NCBI GenBank assembly: GCA_038042445.1
Contig: JBBTED010000112.1
Span: 1-34,753, forward strand
Direction: 5' to 3'
Source of the DNA: Candidatus Firestoneibacteriota bacterium
GTDB taxonomy: Bacteria > Oederibacteriota > D2-FULL-39-29 > JBBTED01
Length of the DNA stretch: 34,753 nt
The notes under the pieces were generated by a model. It was not told the DNA's origin. It worked only from the letters and a program-made list of their open reading frames with translations, and did not search any database. This document shows, piece by piece, positions 866 through 19,272 of this stretch. The translations under genes and the position numbers were made by a program. Numbering within the stretch: the stretch's first letter is position 1; each line of letters opens with the position of its first letter.

Positions 866-905
866 CCCCCTTTAATTCCCCCCTACCCCCCTTTAATAAA
901 GGGGG
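866..905. repeat. CCCCTT-family palindrome (CCCCCTTTA-A-TAAAGGGGG with C-rich leader)
   Basis: Inverted repeat 887-905; same architecture as 5273-5302 and 10251-10296. Confidence 0.7.
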
Positions 906-916
906 CAACATGGCAT

Positions 917-1954
917 TTACCACATTGCGTAATTCATCATCTTTTCATAAACTTCCTGTGAAGTTATCTTGTTAAAACATTCATAAGTACCAAGCGGACA
1001 TATCCTCTTAAAACAAGGGCCGCAGGACAATTTTTTATACAACACTATATGATTATCTCCTAAAGGAGCTGTCCATATTGGACTTGTTGACCCAAATATT
1101 GCAACAACAGGAATATTAAATGCAGCAGCAATATGCATTAAGCCAGTATCATTAGATAAAACTACTTTACATCTTTTAATCGCAGCCATTGTTTCATCAA
1201 TACTAAATTTGCCTACAAAATTTTTAGCATTTTTTATTTCAGAAACAATATTAAACCCAAGCTTCTCTTCTCCTTCCCCTCCTAAAACCACTAATTTGAC
1301 TTCATTGTTTTTAGTCAGCAATTTACCTGTTTCAATAAATTTTGAAATGGGCCAACGTTTTGCAGGCCCATACGTTGCACATGGTGCAAGCCCAACAATA
1401 ATATCATCTTTACCAATGCCATTCTCTTCAAAAATTGCATTTATCCTTTTTATAGTATCCGGGAATAAATTCAAATTGAATTTTATACTGCTTAATGAAG
1501 TTTGCACTCCTGTAACTTCAGATACTATATACAAATATTCTTCTGCTAAATGCCCAACCCTGAATTTCATTTTTGGCACAATACTCTTGCTTAACAAAAA
1601 CCCCCTACACTCACTTTTATATCCTATTCTTTCTTTTATACCTGCAAGAAAAACAGAAAAAGCAGAAGAAAATGATGTTGGGAATATTAACGCCAGATCA
1701 AATTTTTTTGATTTAAGAATATTAGCTAATTTAAATTGCCCTAAAAATCCGTTGCAATCATCATATTTAATTATTTCATTTACATCTGGATTTGCACACC
1801 ATAAATTATGCAAATTTGGCTTTGCAAGAACTCCAATATAAGAATCAGAAAAATAGTGACGTAAAGCATTAACAGCAGGAAAAGAAAGAATGCTGTCACC
1901 TATCCAATTTGGCGCCCGAATCAATATTCTTTTGTAATTCCCATAATTTTGCAT
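917..1954 (-). CDS. waaF: LPS heptosyltransferase II (GT9)
   Basis: ILIRAPNWIGD, PCATYGPAKRWP, SNDTGLMHIAAA, AIFGST and CGPCFKRICPLG motifs. Confidence 0.9.
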   Translation of the reverse strand: MQNYGNYKRILIRAPNWIGDSILSFPAVNALRHYFSDSYIGVLAKPNLHNLWCANPDVNEIIKYDDCNGFLGQFKLANILKSKKFDLALIFPTSFSSAFSVFLAGIKERIGYKSECRGFLLSKSIVPKMKFRVGHLAEEYLYIVSEVTGVQTSLSSIKFNLNLFPDTIKRINAIFEENGIGKDDIIVGLAPCATYGPAKRWPISKFIETGKLLTKNNEVKLVVLGGEGEEKLGFNIVSEIKNAKNFVGKFSIDETMAAIKRCKVVLSNDTGLMHIAAAFNIPVVAIFGSTSPIWTAPLGDNHIVLYKKLSCGPCFKRICPLGTYECFNKITSQEVYEKMMNYAMW

Positions 1955-2675
1955 ATTTTACAAAAACATTAAAAGAGCTTATTATACAAATGACAAAACC
2001 TGTAAATCCATCTAAAAATCCTTTTTTAAAAACATACGATTTAAAAAAGAAAACAATAGGCAATAAAAAAAGTTTAAAAATATTTGATTGGACACCTTTT
2101 TGATACAAATCCTGTGCAGCAAGTGTAGTATATTCATTAAATTTTTCAAAGTATTTAACTAAATTAGCATAAGGTAAATGCAATAAATCAGAACAAAGAT
2201 ATTCCTTTTTTCCATCTAATACAACTCCTTCATGAACTCTTTTTTCATTAAATTTACCTTTATCCTTTTGAAGCAATCGTAATTGATAATCAGGATACCA
2301 TCCAGATGCTTTTATCCATCTGCCTAAAAAAAATGTCCTTCTTGGGAAACAATATCCATCAGCTTTATTCTCACCAATCAAAACATTTATAATCTCATTT
2401 TTTAAATCATCTGTAATACGCTCATCAGCATCTACAGATAAAATCCAGTTATTCTGAGCTTTCTCAATTCCAAAATTCTTTTGCTTTGAATAACCAAGCC
2501 ACTTAATCTGATATATTTTGTCAGTATACTGCCTACACAATTCAACTGTGCTATCACTACTAAAAGCATCTATAATAATTATTTCATCAACCCATTTTAT
2601 GCTTTCCAAACAATTTTTTATGTTCTCTTTTTCATTCTTTGTTATTACAACTGCTGAAATTCTATCTTTAGGCAT
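1896..2675 (-). CDS. GT2 glycosyltransferase, KdtX/WaaE/LgtF-like (LPS core)
   Basis: ISAVVITKNE, DAFSSDST, WILSVDADE, GWYPDYQLRL, VHE and GFLDG motifs. Confidence 0.88.
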   Translation of the reverse strand: MPKDRISAVVITKNEKENIKNCLESIKWVDEIIIIDAFSSDSTVELCRQYTDKIYQIKWLGYSKQKNFGIEKAQNNWILSVDADERITDDLKNEIINVLIGENKADGYCFPRRTFFLGRWIKASGWYPDYQLRLLQKDKGKFNEKRVHEGVVLDGKKEYLCSDLLHLPYANLVKYFEKFNEYTTLAAQDLYQKGVQSNIFKLFLLPIVFFFKSYVFKKGFLDGFTGFVICIISSFNVFVKYAKLWELQKNIDSGAKLDR

Positions 2676-4011
2676 AAGATTTTTTATCTTGTTTAAATAC
2701 TAAAAACATATTTATCAAAAACAACAGAAAACCGCTTCCCAAAAGAATATATAGGATATGGAAAATAGTAGAATGCAAAAACTGAAATAACACCACTTGC
2801 AATACTGCAACAAAAATTAATGGAACTATAAATTTAAATTTATGTACCGACAACTGATACATAAGCAAAATATTAACAAGCGAATAAAAAGTCATAGCCA
2901 CTCCAAAAAGCCAAAGCAGTGGAATGCCAGATATAAATTGTTTTCCAAATAAAAGCAACACTATAGGCTCTGGAAAAGCAAAATAACAAAATGTAATACC
3001 AAGGCAAACTGCAGTAACAATAAGCAAGCTTTTTATAAGAATCGGACGTGGATCTTTGTTTTGTGTATTAAGAGATGCAACCTTTGGAAACATTAATATT
3101 ACAATTGTTGAAGGCAAATACAAAACTATTTTTCCAATCATTTCTGCGCCAGCATAATATCCTGTTTCAACAGTAGAAAAGAAATGTTTTACCATAATTA
3201 AATCTATATTTGTAAGTGCTGTAAAACATAGAAGAGTTACAACTACAGGATAACTGTATGAGTAAATATCTTTAAATTTAATATCATTATTCTTATTATC
3301 TATATCATATTTTTTAGAAAGTATTGGTTTTAACAATAATACTGTATATATAAAACTACCCACACAAGAAAGTGCAATTCCTAAAATAGCGACATTAACT
3401 TTTAATTGGGTAGAAACAATAGAAACAAGTGCTACTGAAAATACAAATCGTAACATACTTTCGCCTGTTCCACTGATACCAAAACCTAAAAATCTTTGTA
3501 AGCCCTGTAAAGCACCACGTGTAACAGGAGTAAGAAATGATGGAATAAAAATAGTGCTCAAAATTAAAATTGGCATTATTGTTTCTATATGCAAATAATT
3601 AGCTATAAGCTTGCTTGCTAACATAAGAATTAAACATAAACCAACACCCATTCCCAACATATTTTTAAGAAGTTTTAACACTAACTTCTTTATTTTAAAC
3701 ATTTCAGACTTTGCAAAAAATTCTGCTATATATTTTGTTGTAACAGTCTGAATCGTGCCTATTGGAACAGCTAATACAATAAACAATGAAAATAAAGACA
3801 TTAAAACAGCATAACCTTCAGGACCTAGCATACGAGCCATTGAAACAGCAAATAAATAGTTAAAGAAATTCCCAATCATCATAATAAAAAAGAGCAATCC
3901 TGTTTCTTTTAAATTCAAACTATGATGACTGGATTCTTCTATTAATGCCGATGAATCGGCAACTACAACAGATGTTTCAGTTTCTGAATGTGATGAATCA
4001 ATTTCAGACAT
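2668..4011 (-). CDS. Wzx-like oligosaccharide flippase (MOP superfamily)
   Basis: Many TM segments with ARMLGPEGYA, RGALQGLQRF, NIDLIMVKHFF and GYYAGA motifs. Start set at ATG 4011 (GGAG 9 nt upstream, no overlap with pyrF). Confidence 0.85.
   Translation of the reverse strand: MSEIDSSHSETETSVVVADSSALIEESSHHSLNLKETGLLFFIMMIGNFFNYLFAVSMARMLGPEGYAVLMSLFSLFIVLAVPIGTIQTVTTKYIAEFFAKSEMFKIKKLVLKLLKNMLGMGVGLCLILMLASKLIANYLHIETIMPILILSTIFIPSFLTPVTRGALQGLQRFLGFGISGTGESMLRFVFSVALVSIVSTQLKVNVAILGIALSCVGSFIYTVLLLKPILSKKYDIDNKNNDIKFKDIYSYSYPVVVTLLCFTALTNIDLIMVKHFFSTVETGYYAGAEMIGKIVLYLPSTIVILMFPKVASLNTQNKDPRPILIKSLLIVTAVCLGITFCYFAFPEPIVLLLFGKQFISGIPLLWLFGVAMTFYSLVNILLMYQLSVHKFKFIVPLIFVAVLQVVLFQFLHSTIFHILYILLGSGFLLFLINMFLVFKQDKKSYA
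3947..3967 (-). repeat. GTAG-tagged REP-like palindrome inside the flippase CDS (encodes VVADSSA)
   Basis: GCCGATGAATCGGCAACTACA, identical to intergenic 17372-17392. Confidence 0.85.
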
Positions 4012-4012
4012 A

Positions 4013-4717
4013 CTATATTTCTCCAAGTATTTGTTGAACTGCAATAACTGGATTTTGCGCTTTCAAAATTGGTCTGCCCACCACAATATAATTCGCACCA
4101 GCATTTATAGCTTCCCATGGTGTCATTATACGTTTCTGATCATCTAAACCAGCCCAAGCAGGACGCACTCCAGGGGTAACAATTATAAATTTTTTTCCAC
4201 ACACTTTGCGAATATCAGTAATTTCCTGTGGAGAAGCTACAATACCATCCAATCCGGCTTTTTTTGCAAGTAATGCCAATTGTTTAACTTTAGCTTTCAA
4301 GTTAATTTTTACTCCTATTTCATTTTTAAGAATATCACTATTAATACTTGTCAGTATAGTCACTCCAAGCAAAACAGGTTTTTTAATTTTTAATTTACTC
4401 GCTGTTCTTTCAACAGATTCTTTCGCGACCAACATCATTTCATATCCACCTAAAGTATGAACATTCAGCATTGCAATTTGTAAGCGAACTACAGATTCGC
4501 ATGCTTTTGCCACTGTATTTGGAATATCATGAAATTTAGCATCTAAAAAAACTTCTACACCAAGTTTTTTAATTGCATTTATAATTTTAGGACCCTCTGC
4601 AGTAAATAACTGTAAACCGACTTTAAAAATTTGAACGTAATTTTTAAGTTTTTTTACTATTGCAATAGCTTGCTTTGCAGAATCCACATCTAATGCCACT
4701 ATCAATTTTGATTTCAT
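4013..4717 (-). CDS. pyrF: Orotidine-5'-phosphate decarboxylase
   Basis: LIVALD, FKVG, FLDAKFHDIPNT, GVTILTS, VTPGVRP, DDQKR and IVVGRPI motifs. Confidence 0.96.
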   Translation of the reverse strand: MKSKLIVALDVDSAKQAIAIVKKLKNYVQIFKVGLQLFTAEGPKIINAIKKLGVEVFLDAKFHDIPNTVAKACESVVRLQIAMLNVHTLGGYEMMLVAKESVERTASKLKIKKPVLLGVTILTSINSDILKNEIGVKINLKAKVKQLALLAKKAGLDGIVASPQEITDIRKVCGKKFIIVTPGVRPAWAGLDDQKRIMTPWEAINAGANYIVVGRPILKAQNPVIAVQQILGEI

Positions 4718-4740
4718 TTTATTTACCCTATTCTATTTTA

Positions 4741-4763
4741 GGGCGGGTAAACCCGCCCCTACG
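4741..4763 (-). repeat. GTAG-tagged REP-like palindrome
   Basis: GGGCGGGTAAACCCGCCC-CTACG, identical to 11693-11715 inside polA. Confidence 0.85.
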
Positions 4764-4779
4764 CAAACAAAGCTCTATA

Positions 4780-5247
4780 TTATTTCAATTCGGCAAATAA
4801 ATTTGCCATTTCTATTGCTGAAATTGCAGCATCTGCTCCTTTATTACCGGATTTTGTACCTGAACGTTCAATAGCCTGCTCAAGTGTATCTGTAGTCAAA
4901 ACTCCAAAAATAGTTGGTATTCCTGATGACAAACCTGTTTGTGCGATACCCTTTGCAGCCTCAGAAGCAATATATTCATTATGTGGTGTATCTCCTTTGA
5001 TAACAGCACCCAAACATATAATTGCATCGTATTTCTTGCCTTTTGCAAGCCTACTTGCTGCATAAGATATTTCAAAAGAACCCGGAACCCATACTACATC
5101 TATATCTTTTTCATCTGCACCATGCCTTATTAAAGTATCCTGCGCTCCTTCAAGAAGTTTCTTTGTCAAGAATTCATTAAACCTTGAAACCACAATTCCA
5201 AATTTCTTACCCGTAGCAATTAACTTGCCTTCATACACTTTACCCAT
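4780..5247 (-). CDS. ribH: 6,7-dimethyl-8-ribityllumazine synthase
   Basis: [48 protein letters not shown]. Probable start at MGKVYEG (5247); the track start 5265 is an alternative. Confidence 0.96.
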
Positions 5248-5272
5248 TTTCCTCAACCCCCTCATAAAATAA

Positions 5273-5302
5273 CCCCCTTAATCCCCCTTTAGTAAAGGGG
5301 GA
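5273..5302. repeat. CCCCTT-family palindrome
   Basis: CCCCCTTAA-TCCCCCTTTA-G-TAAAGGGGGA. Confidence 0.75.
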
Positions 5303-5372
5303 TAGGAGATTTCTATTTATTTTTAACAGATTTATTAAAAAAATGCTATAAATTTTTATAATTTCACTCTAT

Positions 5373-6569
5373 TCAAATCTTTAATAAGTGACCAAGTTTT
5401 TGTTTTTTTACACTTAAATATTTTTTATTCGTTTTATTTGGTGAAATCTCTATTGGAATTCTTTCCACCATATTAAGACCGTATCCTTCTAACCCAATAA
5501 TTTTTTTTGGGTTATTTGTCAATAGCTTAATATTCGTAAGACCCAAATCAACTAAAATCTGTGCTCCAATACCATAATCTCTTAAATCCGCCTTAAATCC
5601 TAATTTTTCATTTGCCTCAACAGTATCATAACCTTCATCCTGAAGTGCATAAGCTTTTATCTTATTATCTATACCAATACCCCTTCCTTCTTGCCTCATA
5701 TATAAAATCACACCTGCTTTTTCTTTAGCTATAATTTTCATAGCAATCTTTAATTGTTCTCCACAATCACATCTAAGTGATCCAAATACATCTCCAGTTA
5801 AGCATTGAGAATGAACACGCACAAGCACACTCTGCTTCCCAGTTATATCACCCATAACAAGCGCAATATGATGTTGAGGCTCAATTGAAGATTCATAAAG
5901 TATTAATTTCCAATCTCCAAAAGAAGTAGGTAATATAGTTTCCTCAATTCTATTTATCAATTTTTCTGTTTTTCTTCTATATTTTATCAAATCGGCAACT
6001 GTAATTATTTTTAAATTATGTTTTTTAGAGAATTTTTTTAAATCCGGCATTCTTGCCATTGTGCCATCTTCTTTCATTATCTCGCAAATTACTCCTGCAG
6101 GATAAAAACCAGAAAGTTTAGCCAAATCAACTGATGCTTCTGTTTGACCAGCTCTTGCCAATACTCCACCTTCACGTGCTTTAAGTGGAAAAATATGTCC
6201 TGGCCTTGCCAAATCCTCTGGCTTGGTTTTCTTATTAATCACTGTCTTTATTGTAACAGCTCTATCATAAGCAGAAATCCCTGTAGTTACACCTTTTTTC
6301 GCATCAATAGAAATTGTAAAAGCAGTTCCAAATTGTGCAGTATTATCAGAAACCATATCTGATATTTTAAGTTCATCTAATCTTTTACTTGTCATTGGCA
6401 AACATATTAACCCACGCCCGTATTTTGCCATAAAGTTTATGGCAAAAGGCGTAACTTTCTCTGCTGCCATTACAAGATCACCTTCATTTTCCCTATCTTC
6501 ATCATCTACAACAATAACCATTTTACCTTTTTTTATATCATCTAATGCTTCCTTAATTGTTTGAATCAT
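5373..6569 (-). CDS. ribBA: Bifunctional DHBP synthase / GTP cyclohydrolase II
   Basis: [52 protein letters not shown] and LLTNNP motifs; GGAG RBS upstream. Confidence 0.97.
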
Positions 6570-6627
6570 ATCCTGTCTCCTAAATAGTGTTTAAGTGCAC
6601 AAGTTCTATGTGCATAAGAATACTTTT

Positions 6628-7269
6628 TTAATTGTTAAATCCTGTTTCTGCTAAAAAATGTTTCGTGATTTTTTCATTAGTATTACCTGTAATAAATTTT
6701 TTAATATGTTTTGATATGATATCTACTTCTACATTTATTTTATCTCCTGCTTTTTTGTGTCCCAAAGTTGTATTTGATAAAGTATGAGGTATAAGAGCCA
6801 CTGTAAATTCTGTATTTTTAACATAAACAAGTGTAAGACTCACACCTTCTATAGCAATTGAACCTTTGCTAACCATAAAATCTGTTAAACTTTTAGCAAA
6901 TGATATTGTCCAAACTTTAGAGCCATTTTTTTGAATTATATTCTTTATTATTCCTACACCATCTATATGTCCCATAACAAAATGCCCACCTAAACGACTT
7001 GTTGGCATTAAAGCACGTTCTAAATTTACTTTTTCTCCAGTATGCAAGCTACTTAAATTTGTTTTTTGCAAAGTTTCTTCCATCACATCAACTTCAAAAC
7101 AACCTTTTTTAAATTTCACTGCTGTTAAACAAACACCGTTTATGCTAATACTTGAACCAATTTCCATATCTTCAAGAATTTTATTAGCAGCAATTTTCAA
7201 ACGCACATTATTGCTTTGCTTGGATACATTTAAAACATTCCCTATTTCTTCAACTATTCCTGTAAACAT
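6628..7269 (-). CDS. ribE: Riboflavin synthase (alpha chain; ribE in Bacillus nomenclature, ribC in E. coli)
   Basis: MFTGIVE start; NGVCLT, VNLERA, RLGGHFVMGHID, KGSIAIEGVSLT and INVEVD motifs. Confidence 0.96.
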   Translation of the reverse strand: MFTGIVEEIGNVLNVSKQSNNVRLKIAANKILEDMEIGSSISINGVCLTAVKFKKGCFEVDVMEETLQKTNLSSLHTGEKVNLERALMPTSRLGGHFVMGHIDGVGIIKNIIQKNGSKVWTISFAKSLTDFMVSKGSIAIEGVSLTLVYVKNTEFTVALIPHTLSNTTLGHKKAGDKINVEVDIISKHIKKFITGNTNEKITKHFLAETGFNN

Positions 7270-7281
7270 AATTTTAATATA

Positions 7282-7372
7282 CGCAGGCTAAAGCCTGCGG
7301 CTACATTTAGATCCTTCGCTAACACTCAGGATGACACTTCGCGTCATTTTACATTTTGCACTTTGCATTTTT
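7282..7372 (-). repeat. Repeat stack: GTAG element (7282-7305), TGTCAT element (7309-7336), CATTTT[G/A] heptamers (7345-7372)
   Basis: CGCAGGCTAAAGCCTGCG-GCTACA; AGATCCTTCGCTAACACTCAGGATGACA; CATTTTA CATTTTG CACTTTG CATTTTT. Confidence 0.8.
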
Positions 7373-8500
7373 AATATATCCTTCTATTAACACATCTTCG
7401 TCAATTTTTTCAACAGAAATATCCTGTAAAGCAATTGCATTTTTTAATTCTTTTATTCCATTGCCTTCAATAGATGTTTTGGCATTTCTACCACCAATTA
7501 TTTTTGGAGAAATAAAAAACAATGCTTTATCAACTATTTTTTCTTCAATTGCAGAAGCATTTACTTCACCACCACCTTCAATTAATATGCTTGTAATTTC
7601 CAAACGCCCAAGTTTTTTAAGTAAATTTTTAAATTTTATCTTACCATTACATAATTTAACCTGCAAAACATCGCTCCCTGTTTTTTTTATCCTTATAAGT
7701 TTCTGCTTTGGAACATCCAAACCAGTTACAATAAGTGTTTTTGCACAAGGAGAAATTTTTAAAACATTCGCAGATAAAGGGATTTTTAAATTGCTATCCA
7801 ATATTACTCGCAATAATTTTCGCTTGTGTTTATTTAATTTTACTTGTGCCCTATACCACTCACTTCGTTCGGATATAGGATATACTATCAAATTGGGATT
7901 GTCTTTTAACACAGTATTTATTCCAACCATAATTGCATCAACACAAAAGCGCAATTTTTGGACCAGCATTCTGGATTCTTCTCCTGTAATCCATTTGGAC
8001 TCACCATTTGTTGTTGCAATTTTTCCATCAATACTCTGACCTGCTTTCAAAATTACATAGGGAATCTTAGTCGTTATATATTTTATGTATGCTTCATTTA
8101 GCTTGTAAGCCTTATCTTTCAATAAACCCTCTTCTACTTTTATTCCAGCATTTTTAAGTTTTTTTATTCCTTTTCCACAAACTATAGGATTAACATCTTT
8201 CATAGCAATAACCACTTTTTTAATTTTAGACTTTATTATAACATCTGTGCAAGGTGGAGTTTTGCCATAATGAGCACATGGTTCAAGTGTAACATACAAA
8301 GTAGCTCCTTTTGACCTATAACCTGCTTCTTTTAAAGCATTAACTTCTGCATGAAATCCACCAGCATATTTATGATAACCTCTGCCTACTATTTTACCAT
8401 TTTTAACAACTATAGCTCCAACTGCAGGATTAGGACTTGTATTACCCAAGCCTTTTTCTGCTTGCCTTAATGCAAGCTCCATAAACTTTTCATCATTCAT
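7349..8500 (-). CDS. ribD: Bifunctional pyrimidine deaminase/reductase
   Basis: TSPNPAVGA, HAE, TLEPCAHYGKTPPC, SIDGKIA, SKWIT, DAIMVG and ILIEGGG motifs. Confidence 0.97.
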   Translation of the reverse strand: MNDEKFMELALRQAEKGLGNTSPNPAVGAIVVKNGKIVGRGYHKYAGGFHAEVNALKEAGYRSKGATLYVTLEPCAHYGKTPPCTDVIIKSKIKKVVIAMKDVNPIVCGKGIKKLKNAGIKVEEGLLKDKAYKLNEAYIKYITTKIPYVILKAGQSIDGKIATTNGESKWITGEESRMLVQKLRFCVDAIMVGINTVLKDNPNLIVYPISERSEWYRAQVKLNKHKRKLLRVILDSNLKIPLSANVLKISPCAKTLIVTGLDVPKQKLIRIKKTGSDVLQVKLCNGKIKFKNLLKKLGRLEITSILIEGGGEVNASAIEEKIVDKALFFISPKIIGGRNAKTSIEGNGIKELKNAIALQDISVEKIDEDVLIEGYIKNAKCKM

Positions 8501-8513
8501 AATTTTAAAGACA

Positions 8514-8602
8514 CTGGATTCCCGATTAAAACTTCGGGAATGACAATGGTTGTTTGTCAGGCAAGATGCCTGACCTATTACTTAATACATTTGGGAATGA
8601 CA
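8514..8602 (-). repeat. Repeat stack in the rib leader: TGTCAT element (8514-8545), GTCAGGC element (8553-8579), TGTCAT remnant (8593-8602)
   Basis: CTGGATTCCCGATTAAAACTTCGGGAATGACA; TTTGTCAGGCAAGATGCCTGACCTATT; GGGAATGACA. Confidence 0.8.
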
Positions 8603-8636
8603 AATAAAAAACCCTGAAGGTAAATACCTTCAGGGT
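8602..8636 (-). terminator. Intrinsic terminator (expression platform of the FMN riboswitch)
   Basis: Minus strand reads ACCCTGAAGGTA-TT-TACCTTCAGGGT followed by TTTTTATTT. The left arm CCCTGAAGG is complementary to the aptamer 5' end CCTTCAGGG. Confidence 0.9.
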
Positions 8637-8651
8637 AAAATACTAATATTT

Positions 8652-8806
8652 AACCTTCTTTCATCCAGACTTTAACTGTCGGCTCTGGAATCTCACCAGA
8701 ATCAATTCTATTAAATCAGAATTTGCGGGCTTTAATTAGCTCAATGAATTGAGCAACTACAATACATCTTACCGCCGATCGGGAATTACACCCTGCCCTG
8801 AAGGCT
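8652..8806 (-). ncRNA. FMN riboswitch (RFN element)
   Basis: Minus strand reads AGCCTTCAGGGCAGGGTGTAATTCCCGATCGGCGGTA...AGCCCGC...GATTCTGGTGAGATTCCAGAGCCGACAGTTAAAGTCTGGATGAAAGAAGGTT, matching the RFN consensus, upstream of ribD. Confidence 0.97.
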
Positions 8807-8812
8807 TAATTT

Positions 8813-8840
8813 ATTATAGCTGAATTATAACATTTTGCAA
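8813..8840 (-). promoter_or_regulatory. Putative sigma70 promoter of the rib operon
   Basis: TTGCAA (8835-8840), 16-nt spacer, TATAAT (8813-8818), ending 6 nt before the aptamer. An overlapping TGnTATAAT extended -10 lies at 8824-8832. Confidence 0.65.
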
Positions 8841-8866
8841 TATATTTCTTGCAAAATTGCAGAAAA

Positions 8867-9460: not shown

Positions 9461-9493
9461 TTTTTTTATTCAAAAATTCCACGACCCATTACG

Positions 9494-9553
9494 TTTGTCA
9501 GGCAAGATGCCTGACCTATTTGAATGGATGCCCCACCCCCTTTATCAAGGGAG
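9494..9553 (-). repeat. GTCAGGC element (9494-9520) and degenerate CCCCTT element (9531-9553) at the coaE 3' end
   Basis: TTTGTCAGGCAAGATGCCTGACCTATT is identical to 8553-8579 and contains the coaE TAG (9516-9518). Confidence 0.8.
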
Positions 9554-10175: not shown

Positions 10176-10178
10176 ATA

Positions 10179-10296
10179 CCCCTCACCCTACCCTCTCCCA
10201 CAAGGGGAGAGGGGAACTTTAATTCTTGGGCGAGTAAACTCGCCCCTACAAATCCCCCATCTGTCCCCCTTTGTCAAAGTGGGAATTAAAGGGGGA
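10179..10296 (-). repeat. Intergenic stack: CCCTCTCCC element (10179-10214), GTAG element (10228-10250), CCCCTT element (10251-10296)
   Basis: CCCCTCACCCTACCCTCTCCCACAAGGGGAGAGGGG; GGGCGAGTAAACTCGCCC-CTACA; AATCCCCCATCTGTCCCCCTTTGTCAAAGTGGGA. Confidence 0.8.
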
Positions 10297-10305
10297 ATTA
10301 TTATA

Positions 10306-12954: not shown

Positions 12955-12970
12955 TTTTTTTCTAAATTGT

Positions 12971-13052
12971 GAGATCCTGAAACAAGTTCAGGATGACAAA
13001 TGCCGATAAATTGACAACTACAAATTAAGCAAGGCTAAAGCCTTGCCCTACA
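12971..13052 (-). repeat. Intergenic stack: TGTCAT element (12971-12998), degenerate GTAG element (13002-13022), GTAG element (13029-13052)
   Basis: GAGATCCTGAAACAAGTTCAGGATGACA; GCCGATAAATTGACAACTACA; GCAAGGCTAAAGCCTTGC-CCTACA. Confidence 0.85.
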
Positions 13053-13071
13053 TACTTAATACCTATAACCG

Positions 13072-14436
13072 CTAACCGCACACCGAAACTTGATGAAGTG
13101 CTTCTTGGACTGTTTTAACGCCGATACACTGACCGTTTTTAGAAGACAAATCTTTTAAATTTGAATGGGGGATTAATATTTTTGAAAATCCTAATTTTAC
13201 TGCTTCATTAACTCGCCTTTCTATTTGTGAAACTGCGCGAACTTCTCCTCCTAAACCGACTTCGCCAATAACAGATACTTTTGTATCAACTGGTATATCT
13301 TTAAAACTTGAGGCTATTGCTAAAATTAGTCCTAAATCCGATGCAGGTTCATCTATTTTTACTCCACCTGCCACATTCACAAATACATCGTAATATGAAA
13401 TATGCAATCCAGCTCTTTTTTCAAGAACTGCAAGAAGTAAAACAAGTTCATTGTAATCTATACCTGTGGCGCGCCGTTGCGGATTTGTAAAATTAGTTGG
13501 GCTTACAAGAGCCTGAAGTTCTACAAGAATCGGACGTGTGCCTTCTATAATTGGAACTATAACAGAACCAGATACATTGTTCGCACGTTCAGATAAAAAT
13601 ATCTGTGAAGGATTTTCAACTTCTATTAAACCTTTTTCCCTCATTTCAAATATTGCAATTTCATTTGTAGAACCAAAACGATTTTTATATGCGCGCAAAA
13701 TTCTAAAAGAATGATGACTATCTCCTTCAAAATATAAAACAGTATCCACTAAATGTTCAAGAACACGAGGCCCTGCAATTGTTCCATCTTTAGTAACATG
13801 ACCAACAATAAAAATAGGTATTCCTGTTGTTTTAGCCAAACGCATAAGAAGAGAACAACTTTCCCGAACCTGACTTACACTCCCGGATGCAGAAGGTATA
13901 TCCGGCCTGAAAATTGTCTGAATTGAATCAATAACTAAAACTTTTGGCTTGAGTTTCTCAACATATTCAATAATTGTATGGACATTTGTTTCAGAAGCAA
14001 TATATAGTTCTTTAGAAATACTGGTTATTCTATTAGCTCTGAGTTTGGTCTGTTTAACAGATTCTTCTCCTGAGATATATAAAACAAGACCATATTTCTG
14101 ACTTAATGTATTTGTAGCCTGTAATAATAGAGTTGATTTACCTATACCCGGCTCTCCACCTATTAAAATAAGAGAACCCGGAACTACTCCGCCACCAAGA
14201 AGTCTATCAAATTCATGGACACCTGTTAATAATCTGTCTTCTTCCTTTGATTCTACTTCTGTTAATGAACGAGGGAATTCCGCTGCTGATTGAATAACTA
14301 AAGATTTGTGATTAATTTCTTCTGCCTGAATTTCTTCAACTATAGTATTCCATTTAGAACAACTAGGACATTTTCCAAGCCATTTTGAGGATTCGTGACC
14401 ACATTCCTGACAGGTGTATTTGATTTTAGTTTTCAT
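13072..14436 (-). CDS. radA: DNA repair protein RadA/Sms
   Basis: CQECG..KWLGKCPSC zinc finger, GGEPGIGKST, IDSIQT, GHVTKDG, KNRFG and EGTRP motifs. Confidence 0.97.
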   Translation of the reverse strand: MKTKIKYTCQECGHESSKWLGKCPSCSKWNTIVEEIQAEEINHKSLVIQSAAEFPRSLTEVESKEEDRLLTGVHEFDRLLGGGVVPGSLILIGGEPGIGKSTLLLQATNTLSQKYGLVLYISGEESVKQTKLRANRITSISKELYIASETNVHTIIEYVEKLKPKVLVIDSIQTIFRPDIPSASGSVSQVRESCSLLMRLAKTTGIPIFIVGHVTKDGTIAGPRVLEHLVDTVLYFEGDSHHSFRILRAYKNRFGSTNEIAIFEMREKGLIEVENPSQIFLSERANNVSGSVIVPIIEGTRPILVELQALVSPTNFTNPQRRATGIDYNELVLLLAVLEKRAGLHISYYDVFVNVAGGVKIDEPASDLGLILAIASSFKDIPVDTKVSVIGEVGLGGEVRAVSQIERRVNEAVKLGFSKILIPHSNLKDLSSKNGQCIGVKTVQEALHQVSVCG

Positions 14437-14446
14437 TGTTTTTGCA

Positions 14447-14499
14447 GAGATTCTGAAACAAGTTCAGAATGACAGATATAAATCCCCCTTAATCCCTCC
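14447..14499 (-). repeat. TGTCAT element (14447-14474) and partial CCCCTT element (14481-14499)
   Basis: GAGATTCTGAAACAAGTTCAGAATGACA is a compensatory variant of the 12971/16323 copies; AATCCCCCTTAATCCCTCC follows. Confidence 0.8.
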
Positions 14500-14526
14500 G
14501 CATAGGCGAAAGGCTACAACTGAAAT

Positions 14527-15417
14527 TTATCTGCGCCAGAGGAGTTTCCAGGGGTGGCTTTTTAAGTCTTCAACAAGTGTTTTTAGGTCTTCAGCTAAAG
14601 CTTTATCTGTCATTAATAGACCTAATGAACCCTCACCCTTTTCAATACCTTTCAAAATTGTATCTAATGAAACAAGAGTTTTGTCTAATTTTTCCGATGC
14701 TTTGCTTAAATTCGCAAGAGTTTCTTCTATGTTTTTTATGTTTTCTTTAGTTAAAATTTTCCCGATTTCATTAGTCAAATCTTCAACATTTTTAGTTATT
14801 TTATTAATTTTCTCAGAACTTTCTTTAAAATTACCAATTGCAGAAACAATAGGTTTTTCATTTTCTTCAACAATCCTATTCGCTGTCGTTGTAGCACTTT
14901 TAATATTATTCAAACTGTCCAATATCGCATTTTTAGCTTCTGGACTTCCTATAACTGAATTAACAGAAGCCATTGCATCTTTCAATTCGCCTAAAATGTT
15001 TGAAAGCTTGGTTATGGCTATATCCGTACTCATTGGATTTACACCTTGAAGTGTATCTCCATTATTTAAATATGGCGAATTTTCACTTCCACCAGCAACC
15101 TCAATATATTTTTCACCCATTAAACCTGAAGTAAATATGGCAAATTCAGCATCTTTATGTATTTTAAAATCTTTTTTTATCCACAGGGAAACTTTTGCTT
15201 TATTTTTTTCCAATTGTATTTCTCTGACTTTTCCCACAACTACTCCACCTGCATATTTCACCTTTGATTCTTTTTTTAAATCACTTACGAATTCAAATAA
15301 TACATGGACTTCGTAACCATTAGCGACTATACTTAGCTTACCAAGATAAAGTAATCCGCCAACAAAAATAATTATACAAGAAATTACCATTAAACCGATT
15401 TTCGCTTCAGAACTCAT
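14527..15417 (-). CDS. mlaD: MlaD/MCE-family protein with helical C-terminal region
   Basis: N-terminal TM helix; L...SKVKYAGGVVVGKV, TSGLMGEKYIEV, GEGSLGLL and HPWKL motifs. GGAGG precedes ATG 15417 (MSSEAK). Confidence 0.85.
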   Translation of the reverse strand: MSSEAKIGLMVISCIIIFVGGLLYLGKLSIVANGYEVHVLFEFVSDLKKESKVKYAGGVVVGKVREIQLEKNKAKVSLWIKKDFKIHKDAEFAIFTSGLMGEKYIEVAGGSENSPYLNNGDTLQGVNPMSTDIAITKLSNILGELKDAMASVNSVIGSPEAKNAILDSLNNIKSATTTANRIVEENEKPIVSAIGNFKESSEKINKITKNVEDLTNEIGKILTKENIKNIEETLANLSKASEKLDKTLVSLDTILKGIEKGEGSLGLLMTDKALAEDLKTLVEDLKSHPWKLLWRR

Positions 15418-16177
15418 CAGTTTTTCCTCCATTTTTTGCTGTTATAGGACCAACCGCACTACCTGTTATAAATTGCTTAACTACCGGATTTTTTGTATTT
15501 TTTATTTCGTCAGGAGTCCCATTAATAACTATTTCACCACCATACATCATAGCTATTCTATCTGATATTTTATATGCACTTACCATATCATGAGTAACAA
15601 CTACAGATGTTATACCAATTTTTCTATGCAAATCAACAATAAGGTTATTAATTACATCTGCAGTTATTGGGTCTAAACCTGTTGTTGGCTCATCATACAG
15701 AAGTATATTCGGCTCCATAGCTATAGCTCTTGCAATTCCCACTCTTTTTCGCATTCCACCGGACAATTCAGCAGGCTTCATATTTTCAATATTTCCCAAA
15801 CCAACCAAAGCAAGTTTTTCATGGACAATTCTATCTATTTCTTTTTTTGAAATATTTGTATTTCTTGCTAATGCAAAACTCACATTTTCACCAATAGTAA
15901 GCGAATCAAATAATGCAGCGCCCTGGAATACCATTCCAAAGTGTTTTCTTATTTCAGCAAGTCGTGCTTCATCAACATTAGATATATCTTCATCATCTAT
16001 ATATATTTTTCCTGCATCCGGTTTCATTATACCAATTATATGTTTTAGTAAAACACTTTTGCCACATCCACTTCCCCCAATTATAGCAAGTGTTTCCCTA
16101 TCGTTTATTTTGAGATTTAAATTTTTAAAAATTCTGTTTTTGCCAAAATATTTTGTTAAATTTGTAATGTTTATCAT
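15407..16177 (-). CDS. mlaF: MlaF/Mkl-family ABC ATPase
   Basis: GGSGCGKS, GMVFQGAALFDSL, ELSGGMRKRVGIARA, YDEPTTGLDP, VTHD and PVVKQF motifs. Start set at MINITNL (16177). Confidence 0.9.
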   Translation of the reverse strand: MINITNLTKYFGKNRIFKNLNLKINDRETLAIIGGSGCGKSVLLKHIIGIMKPDAGKIYIDDEDISNVDEARLAEIRKHFGMVFQGAALFDSLTIGENVSFALARNTNISKKEIDRIVHEKLALVGLGNIENMKPAELSGGMRKRVGIARAIAMEPNILLYDEPTTGLDPITADVINNLIVDLHRKIGITSVVVTHDMVSAYKISDRIAMMYGGEIVINGTPDEIKNTKNPVVKQFITGSAVGPITAKNGGKTDEF

Positions 16178-16185
16178 TTTATGAC

Positions 16186-16235
16186 GCCGATAAATCGGCA
16201 ACTACAAATATACGCAGGCTAAAGCCTGCGACTAC
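16186..16235 (-). repeat. Two GTAG elements (16186-16206, 16213-16235)
   Basis: GCCGATAAATCGGC-AACTACA; CGCAGGCTAAAGCCTGCG-ACTAC. Confidence 0.85.
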
Positions 16236-16284
16236 CAAATACATTTTTAGGTTCGCATAGAAAAACGATTACCAAATATATTAT

Positions 16285-16313
16285 AGAATAGCTTAAGTTT
16301 GAGGAAAAATCAA
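16285..16313 (-). promoter_or_regulatory. Possible sigma70 promoter for mlaF-mlaD-radA-polA-coaE
   Basis: TTGATT, 17-nt spacer, TATTCT (with an overlapping TATAAT) in the repeat-free part of this gap. Confidence 0.4.
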
Positions 16314-16322
16314 GGGTATTTT

Positions 16323-16350
16323 GAGATCCTGAAACAAGTTCAGGATGACA
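16323..16350 (-). repeat. TGTCAT element abutting the stop codon at 16351
   Basis: Identical to 12971-12998. Confidence 0.88.
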
Positions 16351-17283
16351 TTAAAAGAAAAGACTTATGGAGAGGGAGAAGCCGTTTAGGTCTGAAAAAC
16401 CTGTGGAGCTTTTTGTGGGAATAATATTGTATCTTGCATCAAGACTTAATCTGCCTTCATTTACAAAACCCATAAGTATTTGGTAAGATGTCAAAACTTC
16501 TCTTGTAGTAACAGAAGCATAAAGCCATCCATTTGTTGCATCATAACGTTCACCGCGAAATCTTTCAGAAACAAAAGTTGCACCGGCACCTACACCAAAA
16601 TATCCTTTCCATATATTGTCAGGCAGGATGCCTGACCTATTTAAAAATTTTGAACCTCTTATGTTCAAAAAGGATGGTGCCCATACACAAGAAATATATA
16701 AGGGTGTAAGAGCCAAATTTGTATTTGCATATCTCCAATCGCCTTGGGTTGTAGCATTTTGGACCTGAGTTTTTGTTAAAGGAAGTATTCTCTCCTGGTC
16801 AAATTTACCAACTTCTAATATGCTTCCAATTTCTCTCCACCAAATCTGAAGATTAACTCCGTATATTAAACCATCGCTATATACATCACGCATATCTGAA
16901 TTCATCGGCACAAAAACTCCAAGTTTCGGGCCAACATATCCACGAATGTCATCTCCCATCGATTGACGAGCAAGCTCGTCTGCTACATTTTTTTTAAGTA
17001 GTTTTCCGCAGTTACTGCAATATTTTGATGATTCTAGAACCTCTGTATCACATCTGGTGCATTTGATTAGTTTATTTTGACGAGCAAGCTCATCTGCTAC
17101 ATCCTGTTTTGTGATTTCAGATTGCAACATCATAATTGTTGGGTCGGAAACAAAGGTGTTTTGTGAAAAAACAAAAACAGGTGGAAATAAAAATAAAATC
17201 AATAATGATATGATTAGATTCTTCGCTTCGCTCAGAATGACATTTTGTTTCATTTTGCAATTTTCATTTTTCATTTTAATCAT
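16351..17283 (-). CDS. Exported protein: signal peptide, zinc ribbon, putative small outer-membrane beta-barrel
   Basis: Hydrophobic segment ending VFS-Q; CTRC-x10-CSNC; amphipathic strands (YVGPKLG, YFGVGAG, LDARY); terminal FSLSISLFF beta-signal-like end. Confidence 0.65.
   Translation of the reverse strand: MIKMKNENCKMKQNVILSEAKNLIISLLILFLFPPVFVFSQNTFVSDPTIMMLQSEITKQDVADELARQNKLIKCTRCDTEVLESSKYCSNCGKLLKKNVADELARQSMGDDIRGYVGPKLGVFVPMNSDMRDVYSDGLIYGVNLQIWWREIGSILEVGKFDQERILPLTKTQVQNATTQGDWRYANTNLALTPLYISCVWAPSFLNIRGSKFLNRSGILPDNIWKGYFGVGAGATFVSERFRGERYDATNGWLYASVTTREVLTSYQILMGFVNEGRLSLDARYNIIPTKSSTGFSDLNGFSLSISLFF
16616..16641 (-). repeat. GTCAGGC element in frame in the barrel CDS (NRSGILPDN)
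   Basis: TTGTCAGGCAGGATGCCTGACCTATT, one mismatch to the intergenic copies. Confidence 0.85.
16965..17101 (-). repeat. Two direct GTAG elements (16965-16987, 17079-17101) flanking the zinc ribbon, each encoding VADELARQ
   Basis: GACGAGC-AA-GCTCGTC-TGCTACA and GACGAGCAAGCTCATCTGCTACA, offset by 114 nt. Confidence 0.82.
17216..17278 (-). repeat. TGTCAT element (17216-17242, VILSEAKNL) and heptamers (17251-17278) in the signal-peptide n-region
   Basis: AGATTCTTCGCTTCGCTCAGAATGACA, 26/27 identical to 19021-19047. Confidence 0.82.
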
Positions 17284-17294
17284 CTCACATTTAA

Positions 17295-17426
17295 ACCCAC
17301 CCTAACCATCCCTTATCAGGGAGGGGATTACTCGCAAGGCTGAAGCCTTGCCCTACAACTACTACAACTACGCCGATGAATCGGCAACTACAGAACTTCT
17401 GGATTCCTGCTTTCGCGGGAATGACA
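17295..17426 (-). repeat. Intergenic stack of four elements (17295-17326, 17334-17357, 17372-17392, 17399-17426)
   Basis: ACCCACCCTAACCATCCCTTATCAGGGAGGGG; GCAAGGCTGAAGCCTTGCCCTACA; GCCGATGAATCGGCAACTACA; CTGGATTCCTGCTTTCGCGGGAATGACA. Confidence 0.85.
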
Positions 17427-19211
17427 TCATTTCATACCGGGTGGAGTGGATTGTGCTTCACCACCACTTACACGTTTCAAAAAATTCTGCAAATCTTTGT
17501 TCGTTGGGTCAAGCATTAAAGCTTTTTGCCATGCTTCACGCGCTTTATCTTTTTGCTGAATCGCATAATATCCTGAACCTATTCTCATCAAAGCTGTAAG
17601 ATTGCTTGGCTCAAGCTCTAAAACATCCTGACACTTTTCAATTACCTTATCATACTTACCCTCATAGAAATATCCAAGACTTTCGTAAAGTTTTTGCGAA
17701 ACTACATCCATACCTTCTTTTGTCTTGCCACCTTTGAAATCCAGATTTGTTTCAGCAGCTATCATTCTACCTAATTTTATCAATCTCTCATTCTCAGGCT
17801 GCTTGCTTGATACATATTCTAACATATTAAGTGCCATTTTTGGATTACTGTCAATATAATATTCAACACCTCTTCTTATTAAATCACTTTCCCTGCTATC
17901 ACCTGTTTCTTTTGGCATAGCACTTGTTATAGATTGCATTTTATTAACCAAAGCAAGTGAATCTGCATTTTTTGGGTCAAGCTCAATTGCTTTATTTAAT
18001 TTTTCAAGTGATGCAGCATACAAACCTGTTTTATAATCAGCTACTGCCATCTTGTAATAACTATTTGCCTCTTCCTGTTTTGCAAGCTCTATTGACCTCT
18101 CACGTTCAAGCCTTGCAAAAGACATTGATTCTCCAAACCGCGCTGTAGCTGAAAATCTATGGCTTCCACCTAACTCGTGAGTTCCAAACGCATAATCAAG
18201 CCCATAATCTCTATAATATGCACCAAAACCTACTGTAAATTCCTCATAATTTGCACCAACACGAAGTGCAATTTGAAGCGGATTTTCCGTCTGTAATCTA
18301 AACAATTTATATTCAGTTCCAACATACCAATTACTATCACTGTCAACATCAAAAGCTACAGTCATTTGTTTACGCAAAAACCTGTATGACAATCCACCTC
18401 TAATCATAAGTGGTATTTTATCCTGAGTTGCAGCACCAAGATGCATTATCGTTAAAAAATCCTGCAATGTTAATCCCAATCTTGCATCTTCAAAAGGTTC
18501 AGTGATTATTCCTAAATCAGTAAGAATAAATGCATCTATATCTTTAGCTAATGTTCTTGAATAATATTTTACACTTCCTCCTAATGATATATGTTCCATT
18601 AGATATGCCCCATACGCCAAACTTATAGCCATTTCATTAACTCCAAAAGTTCCACCCGGCACATTATATATATCCCGTTCTTCAAAACCACCTGATGAAA
18701 GATATAACAGATTAAGACCAAATGTCCCCATATCCAAAGTAGGATGAACATAACTTACAAAATCATAATTTGTATCAGCCCATAGTATTGCGTGCAATGC
18801 AGTAAGTTCTTTTTGGTCTACTTGCGCTAATGCACCTGTGTTCCAAAGTGTAGCTGTAGCATCATCTACAACTGAAACATAAGCTTTACCCATTCCAAGC
18901 GCTCTTGCACCTGCACCATAAATAAGAAGTGCACCTGGTTTTCCGCCTTTACCTATGGGTGCGGCGGAAATGGGGGAGATAAATAGCAATGTAATACATA
19001 TAATAACAAGGGAAAGAATGAGATTCTTCGCTTTGCTCAGAATGACAGAAGAAATATTGCTCGCAATGACAGATACCATCACGCGTAATGACAAGTTCCG
19101 CAGGCTAAAGCCTGCGACTACCTCTGGATTCCCGCTGGAGTTTACCCCGTACTCCGATACGGGGCGGGAATAACAAGCGATTTTGCATTTTATGTTTTTC
19201 ATTGTCATCAT
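17427..19211 (-). CDS. PorV/PorQ-like (FadL-fold, UPF0164-like) outer-membrane protein with C-terminal TPRs; start uncertain (19211 or 19079)
   Basis: GAGARALGMGKAYVSVVDDATATLWNTGAL signature; barrel end GLDYAFGTHELGGSHRFS; TPRs (KAIELDPKN, AREAWQKALMLDPTN); signal h-region ending ISA-A. Confidence 0.8.
   Translation of the reverse strand: MMTMKNIKCKIACYSRPVSEYGVNSSGNPEVVAGFSLRNLSLRVMVSVIASNISSVILSKAKNLILSLVIICITLLFISPISAAPIGKGGKPGALLIYGAGARALGMGKAYVSVVDDATATLWNTGALAQVDQKELTALHAILWADTNYDFVSYVHPTLDMGTFGLNLLYLSSGGFEERDIYNVPGGTFGVNEMAISLAYGAYLMEHISLGGSVKYYSRTLAKDIDAFILTDLGIITEPFEDARLGLTLQDFLTIMHLGAATQDKIPLMIRGGLSYRFLRKQMTVAFDVDSDSNWYVGTEYKLFRLQTENPLQIALRVGANYEEFTVGFGAYYRDYGLDYAFGTHELGGSHRFSATARFGESMSFARLERERSIELAKQEEANSYYKMAVADYKTGLYAASLEKLNKAIELDPKNADSLALVNKMQSITSAMPKETGDSRESDLIRRGVEYYIDSNPKMALNMLEYVSSKQPENERLIKLGRMIAAETNLDFKGGKTKEGMDVVSQKLYESLGYFYEGKYDKVIEKCQDVLELEPSNLTALMRIGSGYYAIQQKDKAREAWQKALMLDPTNKDLQNFLKRVSGGEAQSTPPGMK
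19021..19206 (-). repeat. Stack of repeats within the open 5' frame of the PorV-like gene
   Basis: TGTCAT element 19021-19047, remnants 19057-19071 and 19080-19093, GTAG element 19099-19121, composite 19124-19175, heptamers 19179-19206. Confidence 0.85.
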
Positions 19212-19221
19212 CTCACATTTA

Positions 19222-19272
19222 GCCGATAAATCGGCAACTACAAATCTCGCAAGGCTAAAGCCTTACCCTACA
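19222..19272 (-). repeat. Two GTAG elements (19222-19242, 19249-19272)
   Basis: GCCGATAAATCGGCAACTACA; GCAAGGCTAAAGCCTTACCCTACA. Confidence 0.85.

Follow-up and report, generated by a model that had tools for sequence, protein, structure and literature searches.

Short hairpin repeats crowd a gene-dense stretch of a groundwater bacterium, with small nuclease genes as candidate partners

The window described here is a 34,753-nucleotide (nt) stretch on contig C112 of an uncultured Candidatus Firestoneibacteriota genome, and our subject is the crowd of short hairpin repeats at positions 866-19272, which lie between genes, within genes and in a riboswitch. The assembly holds 2.81 Mb in 181 contigs at 31.9% GC and is 90% complete, with a contamination estimate of 2.2%. 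Across positions 1-19300 the minus strand carries every gene; in window order these encode a PMT-type glycosyltransferase, a heptosyltransferase, a GT2 protein and a flippase, followed by pyrF, ribH, ribBA, ribE and ribD, a 197-amino-acid (aa) open reading frame (ORF) of no family, coaE, polA, radA and genes for an MlaD protein, an ABC ATPase, a zinc-ribbon protein and a TPR protein, after which comes an ORF of 5123 aa.

Hairpin families in the window and genome-wide

Hairpins with a 5′ GTAG foot, which we class as repetitive extragenic palindromic (REP) sequences, have one build: the foot, 0-2 nt, a stem of 6-8 bp and a 4-nt loop, in units of 22-23 nt. Between 866 and 19272 the minus strand carries 12 with perfect stems, or 17 if a single mismatch is tolerated, and the plus strand carries none, in keeping with the roughly 18 hairpins and at least six stems reported in a preliminary description of this DNA; the stems number at least seven (CGCAGGC, GGGCGGG, GGGCGAG, GCAAGGC, TGCCGA, GCTCAA and GCAAAGC). 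Two of the 17, at 15437 and 17681, look like chance, and three degenerate copies overlooked by the detector were recognized by eye (13003-13025, 16184-16207 and 17366-17390). The five GTCAGGC-core elements described earlier are all present; they share the build of the GTAG family and carry an ATAG foot, which refines their class to ATAG-footed REPs with an enzyme gene of their own, described below. Two others of the 17 GTAG-footed hairpins are the sole copies in the genome of one repeat, GTAGCAGA.GAGCTTGCTCGTC, at 16965-16986 and 17079-17100 of the same ORF (16351-17283), each encoding VADELARQ with a zinc-ribbon segment between them, and the pair may be a private duplication rather than a member of any family.

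The remaining elements are of other builds. Units with a TGTCA(T) foot fall into three types, an NTS-like one (TGTCATTCCCGCGAAAGCGGGAATCCAG), CCTGAA-CTTGTT (B1) and TTCTGAG-CGAAGC (B3); strict detectors recover only 3-4 of them in the window, short of the dozen or so first proposed, whereas counting partial and degenerate units by eye gives 16. The C-rich, CCCCTT-type hairpins, previously put at about seven, number eight, of which three are perfect and five imperfect. Their pyrimidine arm, loop and purine arm are followed by a mirror purine block, seen in 3 of 3 perfect window copies and in 143 oriented units genome-wide, and we assign them to the BoxC/PIT/TMECO triplex type. The preliminary description had missed a further kind, family F (ATATACCACTCACTTCGTTCGGGTATAT), which has ten copies in the genome including one within ribD, as well as an in-frame REP in coaE. 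Finally, composites in which an ATAG-GTCAGGC REP sits in the loop of ATTCC(C/T)G...CGGGAAT arms occur at no fewer than 10 places in the genome, and both long polA inserts are of this kind. Window units span 22-55 nt (Table 1).

Table 1. Repeat elements and the riboswitch between positions 866 and 19272 of the window
Positions	Element	Context	Strand
866-908	C-rich triplex-type (PIT-like): C-arm, loop, G-arm, mirror G block		-
3946-3966	GTAG REP, TTGCCGA stem	5′ end/leader of flippase ORF	-
4741-4762	GTAG REP, GGGCGGG stem	between ribH and pyrF	-
5266-5310	C-rich triplex-type	between ribBA and ribH	-
7282-7304	GTAG REP, CGCAGGC stem (most abundant family)		-
7305-7348	two stacked TGTCA-footed units		-
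7850-7885	family F hairpin	in frame in ribD	-
8519-8545	TGTCA-footed hairpin, ATTCCCG arms		-
8556-8578	ATAG-footed REP, GTCAGGC stem		-
8649-8809	FMN riboswitch RF00050, 105 bits	GTAG REP at 8737-8760 in P3 terminal loop	-
9168-9222	composite: outer arms TGTCATTCCCGC, inner CCCCGTA hairpin	in frame in 197-aa ORF 8867-9460	-
9497-9519	ATAG-footed REP, GTCAGGC stem		-
9520-9552	imperfect C-rich hairpin	encodes unique CoaE C-terminal tail	-
9822-9845	GTAG REP, GCAAAGC stem	in frame in coaE	-
10178-10218	TMECO/BoxC-type: CCCTCTCCC, loop, GGGAGAGGG, TA, GGGTGAGGG		-
10228-10249	GTAG REP, GGGCGAG stem		-
10250-10300	imperfect C-rich hairpin units		-
11693-11714	GTAG REP, GGGCGGG stem	in frame in polA	-
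11833-11885	composite, ATTCCCG arms around ATAG-GTCAGGC REP	in frame in polA	-
12012-12060	second ATTCCCG/ATAG-GTCAGGC composite	in frame in polA	-
12971-12998	TGTCA-footed hairpin, CCTGAA-CTTGTT type (B1)		-
13003-13051	degenerate TTGCCGA-type REP, then GTAG REP with GCAAGGC stem		-
14445-14520	B1-type TGTCA unit, C-rich remnant and GTAG-footed remnant		-
16184-16235	TTGCCGA-type REP, then CGCAGGC REP		-
16325-16350	B1-type TGTCA hairpin		-
16618-16640	ATAG-GTCAGGC REP	in frame in ORF 16351-17283; peptide NRSGILPD as in polA	-
17212-17243	B3-type unit TGTCATTCTGAGCGAAGCGAAGAATC	translated VILSEAKNL, just before signal-peptide core	-
17286-17427	mixed stack: C-rich element, GCAAGGC REP, TTGCCGA REP, NTS-like TGTCATTCCCGCGAAAGCAGGAATCCAG		-
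19008-19272	mixed stack: B3 unit, two partial TGTCA units, CGCAGGC REP, composite, TTGCCGA REP, GCAAGGC-like REP	part read as N-terminus of ORF 17427-19211	-

A scan of the whole assembly, compared with five first-order Markov simulations of the genome, places these motifs far beyond the window and far above chance: 494 GTAG hairpins against 5-12 simulated, 201 TGTCA hairpins against 9-15, and 100 ATAG hairpins against 16-24. Pyrimidine-arm hairpins reach 264 strand-counts (132 loci), against 0, 0 and 2 in simulations. The foot also emerges from a tag-free search that begins with the hairpins, in which GTAG is the commonest 4-mer 5′ of GC-rich perfect hairpins (144 of 1738 flanks). As the preliminary description proposed, several non-autonomous families coexist: the GTAG hairpins alone have 103 different stems, of which 31 are present in at least 3 copies and 12 in at least 10, and to these are added the ATAG, TGTCA, C-rich and F families. 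Density between 866 and 19272 reaches 1.25 elements per kb, against a median of 0.33 and a maximum of 1.20 in 139 bins of 18.4 kb, making this the densest 18-kb stretch of the genome; the earlier claim of unusually high insert density thus holds within this genome, whose own bins are the sole comparison.

Most GTAG copies, 394 of 494 or about 80%, fall outside crude ORF calls. Nearly half take part in inverted GTAG...CTAC doublets within 100 nt of each other (the REPIN form), of which the genome has 114 and the window none, every window copy being a singleton. Distribution across genomes is patchy. Of the CGCAGGC REP we count 124 copies in this genome and 55 in a genome from a different family, against no more than 2 in each of 29 others; an NTS-like 24-mer occurs 36 times here and 23 times in one genome of the same phylum, with no more than 2 copies elsewhere. 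These copy numbers fit lineage-specific bursts. A CRISPR-like repeat with core CGCTCCCGCGCGGGGAGCG, present in 31 copies genome-wide, was set aside because none of its copies is among the window elements; judged from its conserved 32-nt unit alone, GTTTCAATCCACGCTCCCGCGCGGGGAGCGAC (GTTTCAATCC...GAC), it resembles a CRISPR repeat, and it is unrelated to the hairpin families.

Copies inside genes and an FMN riboswitch

Three elements lie in frame in polA, between the 5′-3′ exonuclease and polymerase domains. Among 20 aligned orthologues, the nine of the same class are gapped at all three places, and at the first two a few distant orthologues show unrelated residues; divergence of the linker makes the alignment loose there. 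The REP in coaE encodes VAAKRSFA and is absent from 10 of 10 orthologues compared, and the family F copy in ribD adds 15 residues that are absent from 9 of 9. The CoaE tail encoded by a C-rich element is likewise unique to this protein. A search of metagenome contigs for closer relatives of PolA gave 77 loci, none above 50% identity. Elsewhere in the genome, 19 ORFs have multi-copy elements deep inside them; 16 of these contain Pfam domains, and in most of the 16 the copy falls inside a domain match or between two matches. The hosts include arginyl-tRNA synthetase, adenylate kinase, a Mur ligase, GH2 and GH42 proteins and adenylate cyclase.

Repeats also occur at the starts of proteins. In two neighbouring outer-membrane-type ORFs the TGTCATTCTGAGCGAAGCGAAGAATC unit, at 17212-17243 and 19017-19047, is translated as VILS(E/K)AKNL directly before the hydrophobic core of a signal peptide. 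Because no start codon lies downstream of the unit, the charged N-region of that signal peptide appears to come from the repeat.

The flavin mononucleotide (FMN) riboswitch shows that the same elements can occupy a noncoding RNA. Relative to the Rfam model it has a 25-nt insertion in the terminal loop of P3, and the inserted REP is one of about 8 dispersed copies of a subfamily, TGTAGTTGCTCAATT(T/C)ATTGAGC. A minimal P3 loop, GGTAAAGCC, in a 124-nt aptamer is found in 4 of 14 relatives with an FMN riboswitch; the aptamers of other relatives extend to 264 nt and have other hairpin repeats in P3 or another peripheral loop. In six of the genomes (G001, G002, G003, G005, G006 and G007) these repeats are of a CCATG(A/T)ACCA...GGT.CATGG type, with three tandem copies in G005. 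Among the top-ranked literature matches for riboswitch and transposase we found no relevant report of a repeat within a riboswitch, which is weak evidence of absence.

Rickettsia palindromic elements, first invoked as the precedent for the coding insertions, are long (about 100-150 bp) and inserted in frame; the units here are much shorter (22-55 nt), and in-frame tolerance is all that the two have in common. In size and build our inserts instead match the intragenic REPs described, in the available excerpts, by Di Nocera, De Gregorio and Rocco (2013, PMC3733652), which are in-frame palindromic inserts in conserved genes, many of them replication or repair genes: the hosts named there include nucleotide-excision proteins, a UvrD/Rep helicase and a DNA polymerase. 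Given this precedent, the in-frame inserts here are not new in kind. What differs from both earlier cases is that three enzyme-linked classes insert in one genome, that composites are nested, and that a riboswitch loop is occupied.

The integrity of these frames also bears on whether the repeats could be an artefact of metagenome binning or assembly, created by chimeric joins at short repeats of several organisms. In all four groundwater runs whose contigs cover junctions in the window (from four studies), repeat-containing bins are 10-200 times deeper than neighbouring bins, which means that the same short sequences occur in many molecules, possibly of other organisms, and Logan contigs break at the repeats. 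Nevertheless, long contigs from an independent assembly cross many of the junctions without a single difference (4294-8347, 9165-10203 and 10191-11860 among them), the polA, coaE and ribD frames pass through their inserts without stops, and the contamination estimate is 2.2%. We therefore consider an artefact of this sort extremely improbable.

Nuclease genes and the hairpins beside them

As the preliminary description stated, no mobilizing enzyme is encoded in the window: contig C112 has no match to a REP-associated tyrosine transposase (RAYT), a GIY-YIG protein or a DUF559 protein. Genes of all three kinds, for which that description had proposed a search, lie elsewhere in the genome, and members of each are flanked by a matching repeat family. 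Five are Y1_Tnp genes, and 'REP-associated tyrosine transposase' (NF047646) is the best NCBIfam name for all five proteins, one scoring above the cut-off (111.8 versus 80) and four below it (50-78). The two compared with solved structures both match E. coli TnpA-REP (4er8), and HUH and YI.NN motifs are kept in 5 of 5. RAYT2 was initially read as being without a catalytic tyrosine; this was overturned by alignment with 4er8, which puts that residue in the YI.NNP motif, kept in all five proteins and taken by us as the site of the catalytic Tyr of RAYTs.

A different REP stem family accompanies each of the five RAYT genes, four of which have their REPs on both sides or within the gene itself. RAYT1 has GCAGAGC and GCAAAGC REPs on both sides, RAYT2 has ATAG-GTCAGGC on both sides, and RAYT3 has GGGC(G/A)(A/G)G REPs on both sides and within. 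At RAYT5 a double-foot GTAG...CTAC unit, GTAGGGAA.GGTCGCGACC.TTCCCTAC, lies both upstream of the gene and within it. For RAYT4 a single perfect TTGCCGA REP stands 370 nt from the gene, which is directly adjoined by imperfect copies, one of them read in frame as ...VVADSSA.... In three RAYT genes the stretch from the HUH to the YI.NN motif includes an in-frame copy of the gene's own REP; this trait and the double foot mark TnpAY1 subclass 2.4 as given in excerpts of Quentin et al. (2018, PMC6006769). The RAYT4 frame (contig C63, about 8100-8800) passes through TTGCCGA REPs without a stop and continues through the signal peptide of a 1,200-aa surface protein into its body; this protein has a sorting-type domain at its C-terminus, and the whole makes one open frame of 1,370 aa.

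Cleavage and rejoining of single-stranded REP DNA by RAYTs is the published route of REP spread. The families here resemble known REP/REPIN-RAYT systems (REPtrons; E. coli yafM, PDB 4ER8; Pseudomonas) in the GTAG foot 0-2 nt before a GC-rich hairpin, in the inverted doublets and in having several RAYT genes per genome, each with its own flanking REP family. They differ in that the host is an uncultured groundwater bacterium of 32% GC, that the units are very short and uniform (22-23 nt), with one TTTA loop common to at least 31 stem families, that one family has an ATAG foot, and that window copies are all singletons.

The TGTCA-footed hairpins are best grouped with the Ssn/SRM system of 2025 rather than with RAYTs. 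Besides uvrC, the genome has four small single-domain GIY-YIG genes (81-95 aa; 63-77 bits to Pfam GIY-YIG). By our own detector and by eye, TGTCA hairpins flank two of them on both sides, of the CTGAA type at GIY2 and of the TTCTGAG type (TGTCATTCTGAG) at GIY3; GIY4 has three family F units before the gene, on one side only. According to excerpts of Chenal et al. (2025, PMC11893778), Ssn homologues preferentially cut their own SRM, and residues Y6, Y17 and E64 of SsnA were mutated; Y8, Y19 and E66 of GIY2 have the same spacing. Our elements resemble NTS/dRS3 and the SRM with its Ssn partner, as described there, in their 5′ GTCA(T) foot followed by a hairpin and in the small single-domain GIY-YIG genes bracketed by hairpins, and NTS-like TGTCATTCCCGCGAAAGCGGGAATCCAG is one base away from the Neisseria NTS consensus quoted in that paper. 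The units can also be likened to the 'CGTC-tagged' repeats of Di Nocera et al. (2013), as excerpted.

The published SRM pattern, HGTCWYN(0-2)YYVSBRHN(0-5)WNVSBRGN(0-2)RNCYNB, has 46 matches in the genome against 1-3 in simulated ones, and 36 of the 46 are the GTCATTCCCGC (NTS-like) subfamily; none of the four GIY-YIG genes is flanked by it. Because the pattern catches only this subfamily, we file the GIY2 and GIY3 hairpins as Ssn/SRM-like in working terms, with membership partly shown. Family F hairpins stand directly after the 3′ CCA end of tRNA genes on contigs C21 (about 49900-50150) and C133 (about 15865), and on C21 they lie between the tRNA gene and a small GIY-YIG gene.

The third pairing concerns the C-rich hairpins and three DUF559 genes. 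DUF559a is followed on its 3′ side by two C-rich hairpins; at DUF559b, a perfect hairpin lies at the 5′ end of the gene and an imperfect one overlaps the stop. In 27 other genomes of the phylum, a pyrimidine-arm hairpin lies within 200 nt of 25 of 29 DUF559 loci, on both sides at 13, with 3.66 hairpins per kb near the gene versus 0.19 far from it. The association extends to Patescibacteria, Bacteroidota, Proteobacteria, Clostridia, Chloroflexota, Cyanobacteria and others: at 80 loci gathered with a single-protein query, 71 have such a hairpin within 250 nt and 44 have one on both sides (3.34 per kb near versus 0.19 far). The sequence of the flanking hairpins varies by genome and their build is constant. 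In the DUF559 proteins, acidic residues D45, E56, D58 and D71 are invariant.

In build, the C-rich elements match BoxC/PIT/TMECO repeats as set out in excerpts of Holder et al. (2015, PMC4666352), with a C-stem, loop, G-stem, short loop and second mirror G block, and like those repeats they are mostly intergenic; the copy at 10178-10218 fits the TMECO consensus given there except for a 2-nt second loop. They differ in that most copies here are of CCCCCTTT/AAAGGGGG composition and in that they bracket DUF559 genes, whereas those excerpts report no mobility genes near TMECO. Judging from titles and abstracts, we found no published link between DUF559 and such repeats. E. coli was considered as a counter-example because a genome search with PF04480 gave no match there, and was dropped: strain K-12 carries an annotated DUF559 gene, ycjD, with a TMECO-type motif some 170 nt downstream of it. 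A second copy of the final 45 nt or so of ycjD stands about 60 nt downstream, and the TMECO-type motif comes after that copy, in what looks like the remnant of a second cassette end.

These associations also bear on the idea that a single enzyme or host process, such as recombination or gene conversion, spreads all the families, with the repeats beside nuclease genes being local pile-ups in permissive DNA. Such uniformity of process could account for the TTTA loop and foot common to 334 of 494 GTAG hairpins despite their 103 stems, for a largest family with no RAYT of its own, and for mixed stacks and nested composites, in which families share sites. It sits poorly with a different stem family at each of five RAYTs, on both sides or inside the gene at four, with the roughly 17-fold enrichment of C-rich hairpins beside DUF559 genes across phyla, and with the preference of Ssn homologues for their own SRM in the excerpts cited above. 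We judge it very unlikely.

Orientation, origin and meaning of the repeats

Between co-directional genes, singleton REPs run along the genes in 102 cases and oppose them in 28, C-rich units do so in 52 and 7, and TGTCA units are unbiased (37 and 32). The uniform orientation in the window is thus an extreme case of a genome-wide singleton rule, and the bias puts the GTAG strand on the gene-sense strand. IS200/IS605 enzymes insert into the single-stranded lagging-strand template, and the placement of the GTAG strand is as expected for such insertion; transcription explains the bias equally well. Replication strand and selection on transcripts are inseparable on these short contigs because 2145 of 2422 crude gene calls genome-wide lie on the locally G-rich strand, an unusually strong bias of strand or composition.

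A rival view regards the hairpins as host regulatory signals in RNA or DNA (3′-end stabilizers, attenuators or terminators) that are selected and immobile and stand beside nuclease genes incidentally. In its favour are the preferences of REPs and C-rich units, the agreement of every tagged unit in the window with the direction of transcription, and the presence of repeats in almost all spacers of the rib operon; in excerpts of PMC3733652 many REPs are also argued to act as RNA elements. Immobile signals of this sort would not be expected to lie in frame inside at least 15 conserved genes, to form 114 inverted, orientation-less doublets, to include TGTCA units of unbiased orientation, to differ about 60-fold in copy number between related genomes or to bracket five RAYT genes in a family-specific way; moreover, no T-tract was seen by eye after the stems. 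On balance we find a purely regulatory origin improbable. The regulatory and mobile readings are compatible, as mobile copies can be co-opted.

We think it likely that the window is the densest patch of genome-wide repeats stemming from at least three systems of hairpin and small nuclease, in each of which the nuclease most likely recognizes and cuts its own hairpin in trans. Well over a thousand short repeats would fold as single-stranded DNA hairpins and fall into three pairings: REPs with a GTAG or ATAG foot with the five RAYT (HUH/Y1) genes; SRM-like TGTCA-footed hairpins with small GIY-YIG genes, the fourth of which may pair with family F; and triplex-type hairpins, with their pyrimidine arm and mirror G block, with DUF559 (Vsr-like) genes. 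Of 12 sequences folded as DNA, which for triplex-type elements covered the hairpin part, 8 have Z-scores of -2.3 to -4.7. Catalysis by these proteins, mobilization in trans and the way in which SRM-like and triplex types multiply are predicted here from sequence. As crude ORF calls cover 92% of the genome and intergenic gaps are few, copies pile up in the gaps as mixed stacks. Nesting also occurs, with a REP inside an SRM-like loop and the resulting composite itself repeated. Copies in genes would survive only when in frame, free of stops and within tolerant linkers or loops, and a peripheral riboswitch loop might be colonized in the same way.

Several observations weigh against this account. 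No RAYT flanked by CGCAGGC, the largest family (124 copies), is found in this assembly, a departure from known REPtrons, or among 5 RAYT loci examined of 7 matches in genome G005, which carries CGCAGGC. GIY1 has no flanking repeats, and no C-rich hairpin lies near DUF559c. Unlike published SRMs, the hairpin families that flank GIY2 and GIY3 (CTGAA-CTTGTT and TTCTGAG-CGAAGC; B1 and B3) are missed by the SRM pattern, whose only match in the window is due to chance, and the NTS-like subfamily (36 copies) flanks no GIY-YIG gene in the assembly. In two relatives, G005 and G018, a strict detector finds a perfect GTCA-footed hairpin within 600 nt at one of four small GIY-YIG loci. When folded as DNA, B3, family F and the NTS-like window copy do no better than shuffles. 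The nearest genomes share only the class (polA no more than 58% identical), so absence from orthologues does not define a precise empty site, and no polymorphism of empty and filled sites was seen over 800-19400 in four groundwater metagenomes, whose contigs break at repeats. As no contig skips an element and the joints listed are repeat-mediated, these metagenomes are silent on current mobility. At 90% completeness, some partner genes may also be unassembled.

REP-RAYT and SRM-Ssn systems and intragenic REPs have already been published, and in these respects the locus adds a rich example to kinds already known. Because two of the three pairings are published, they serve as internal positive controls for the third, and the link between DUF559 and triplex-type repeats is a well-supported lead. 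More broadly, we suggest, tentatively and with nearly balanced confidence, that DUF559 nucleases could be the missing partners of BoxC/PIT/TMECO repeats and that the three systems may interact, nest and remodel protein linkers and riboswitch loops as a community.

Three classes of very small hairpin repeats are thus each tied to a candidate enzyme within one genome. The locus illustrates how such elements can invade without destroying function, with three inserts in DNA polymerase I, one in CoaE, one in RibD and one in the loop of an FMN riboswitch; the nesting composites, the triple occupation of polA and the repeatedly colonized riboswitch loop are notable details of that process. The DUF559 link makes the spread of triplex-type repeats, so far unexplained, directly testable. 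If true, it would add a third system of a small nuclease with its own dispersed hairpin beside REP-RAYT and SRM-Ssn.

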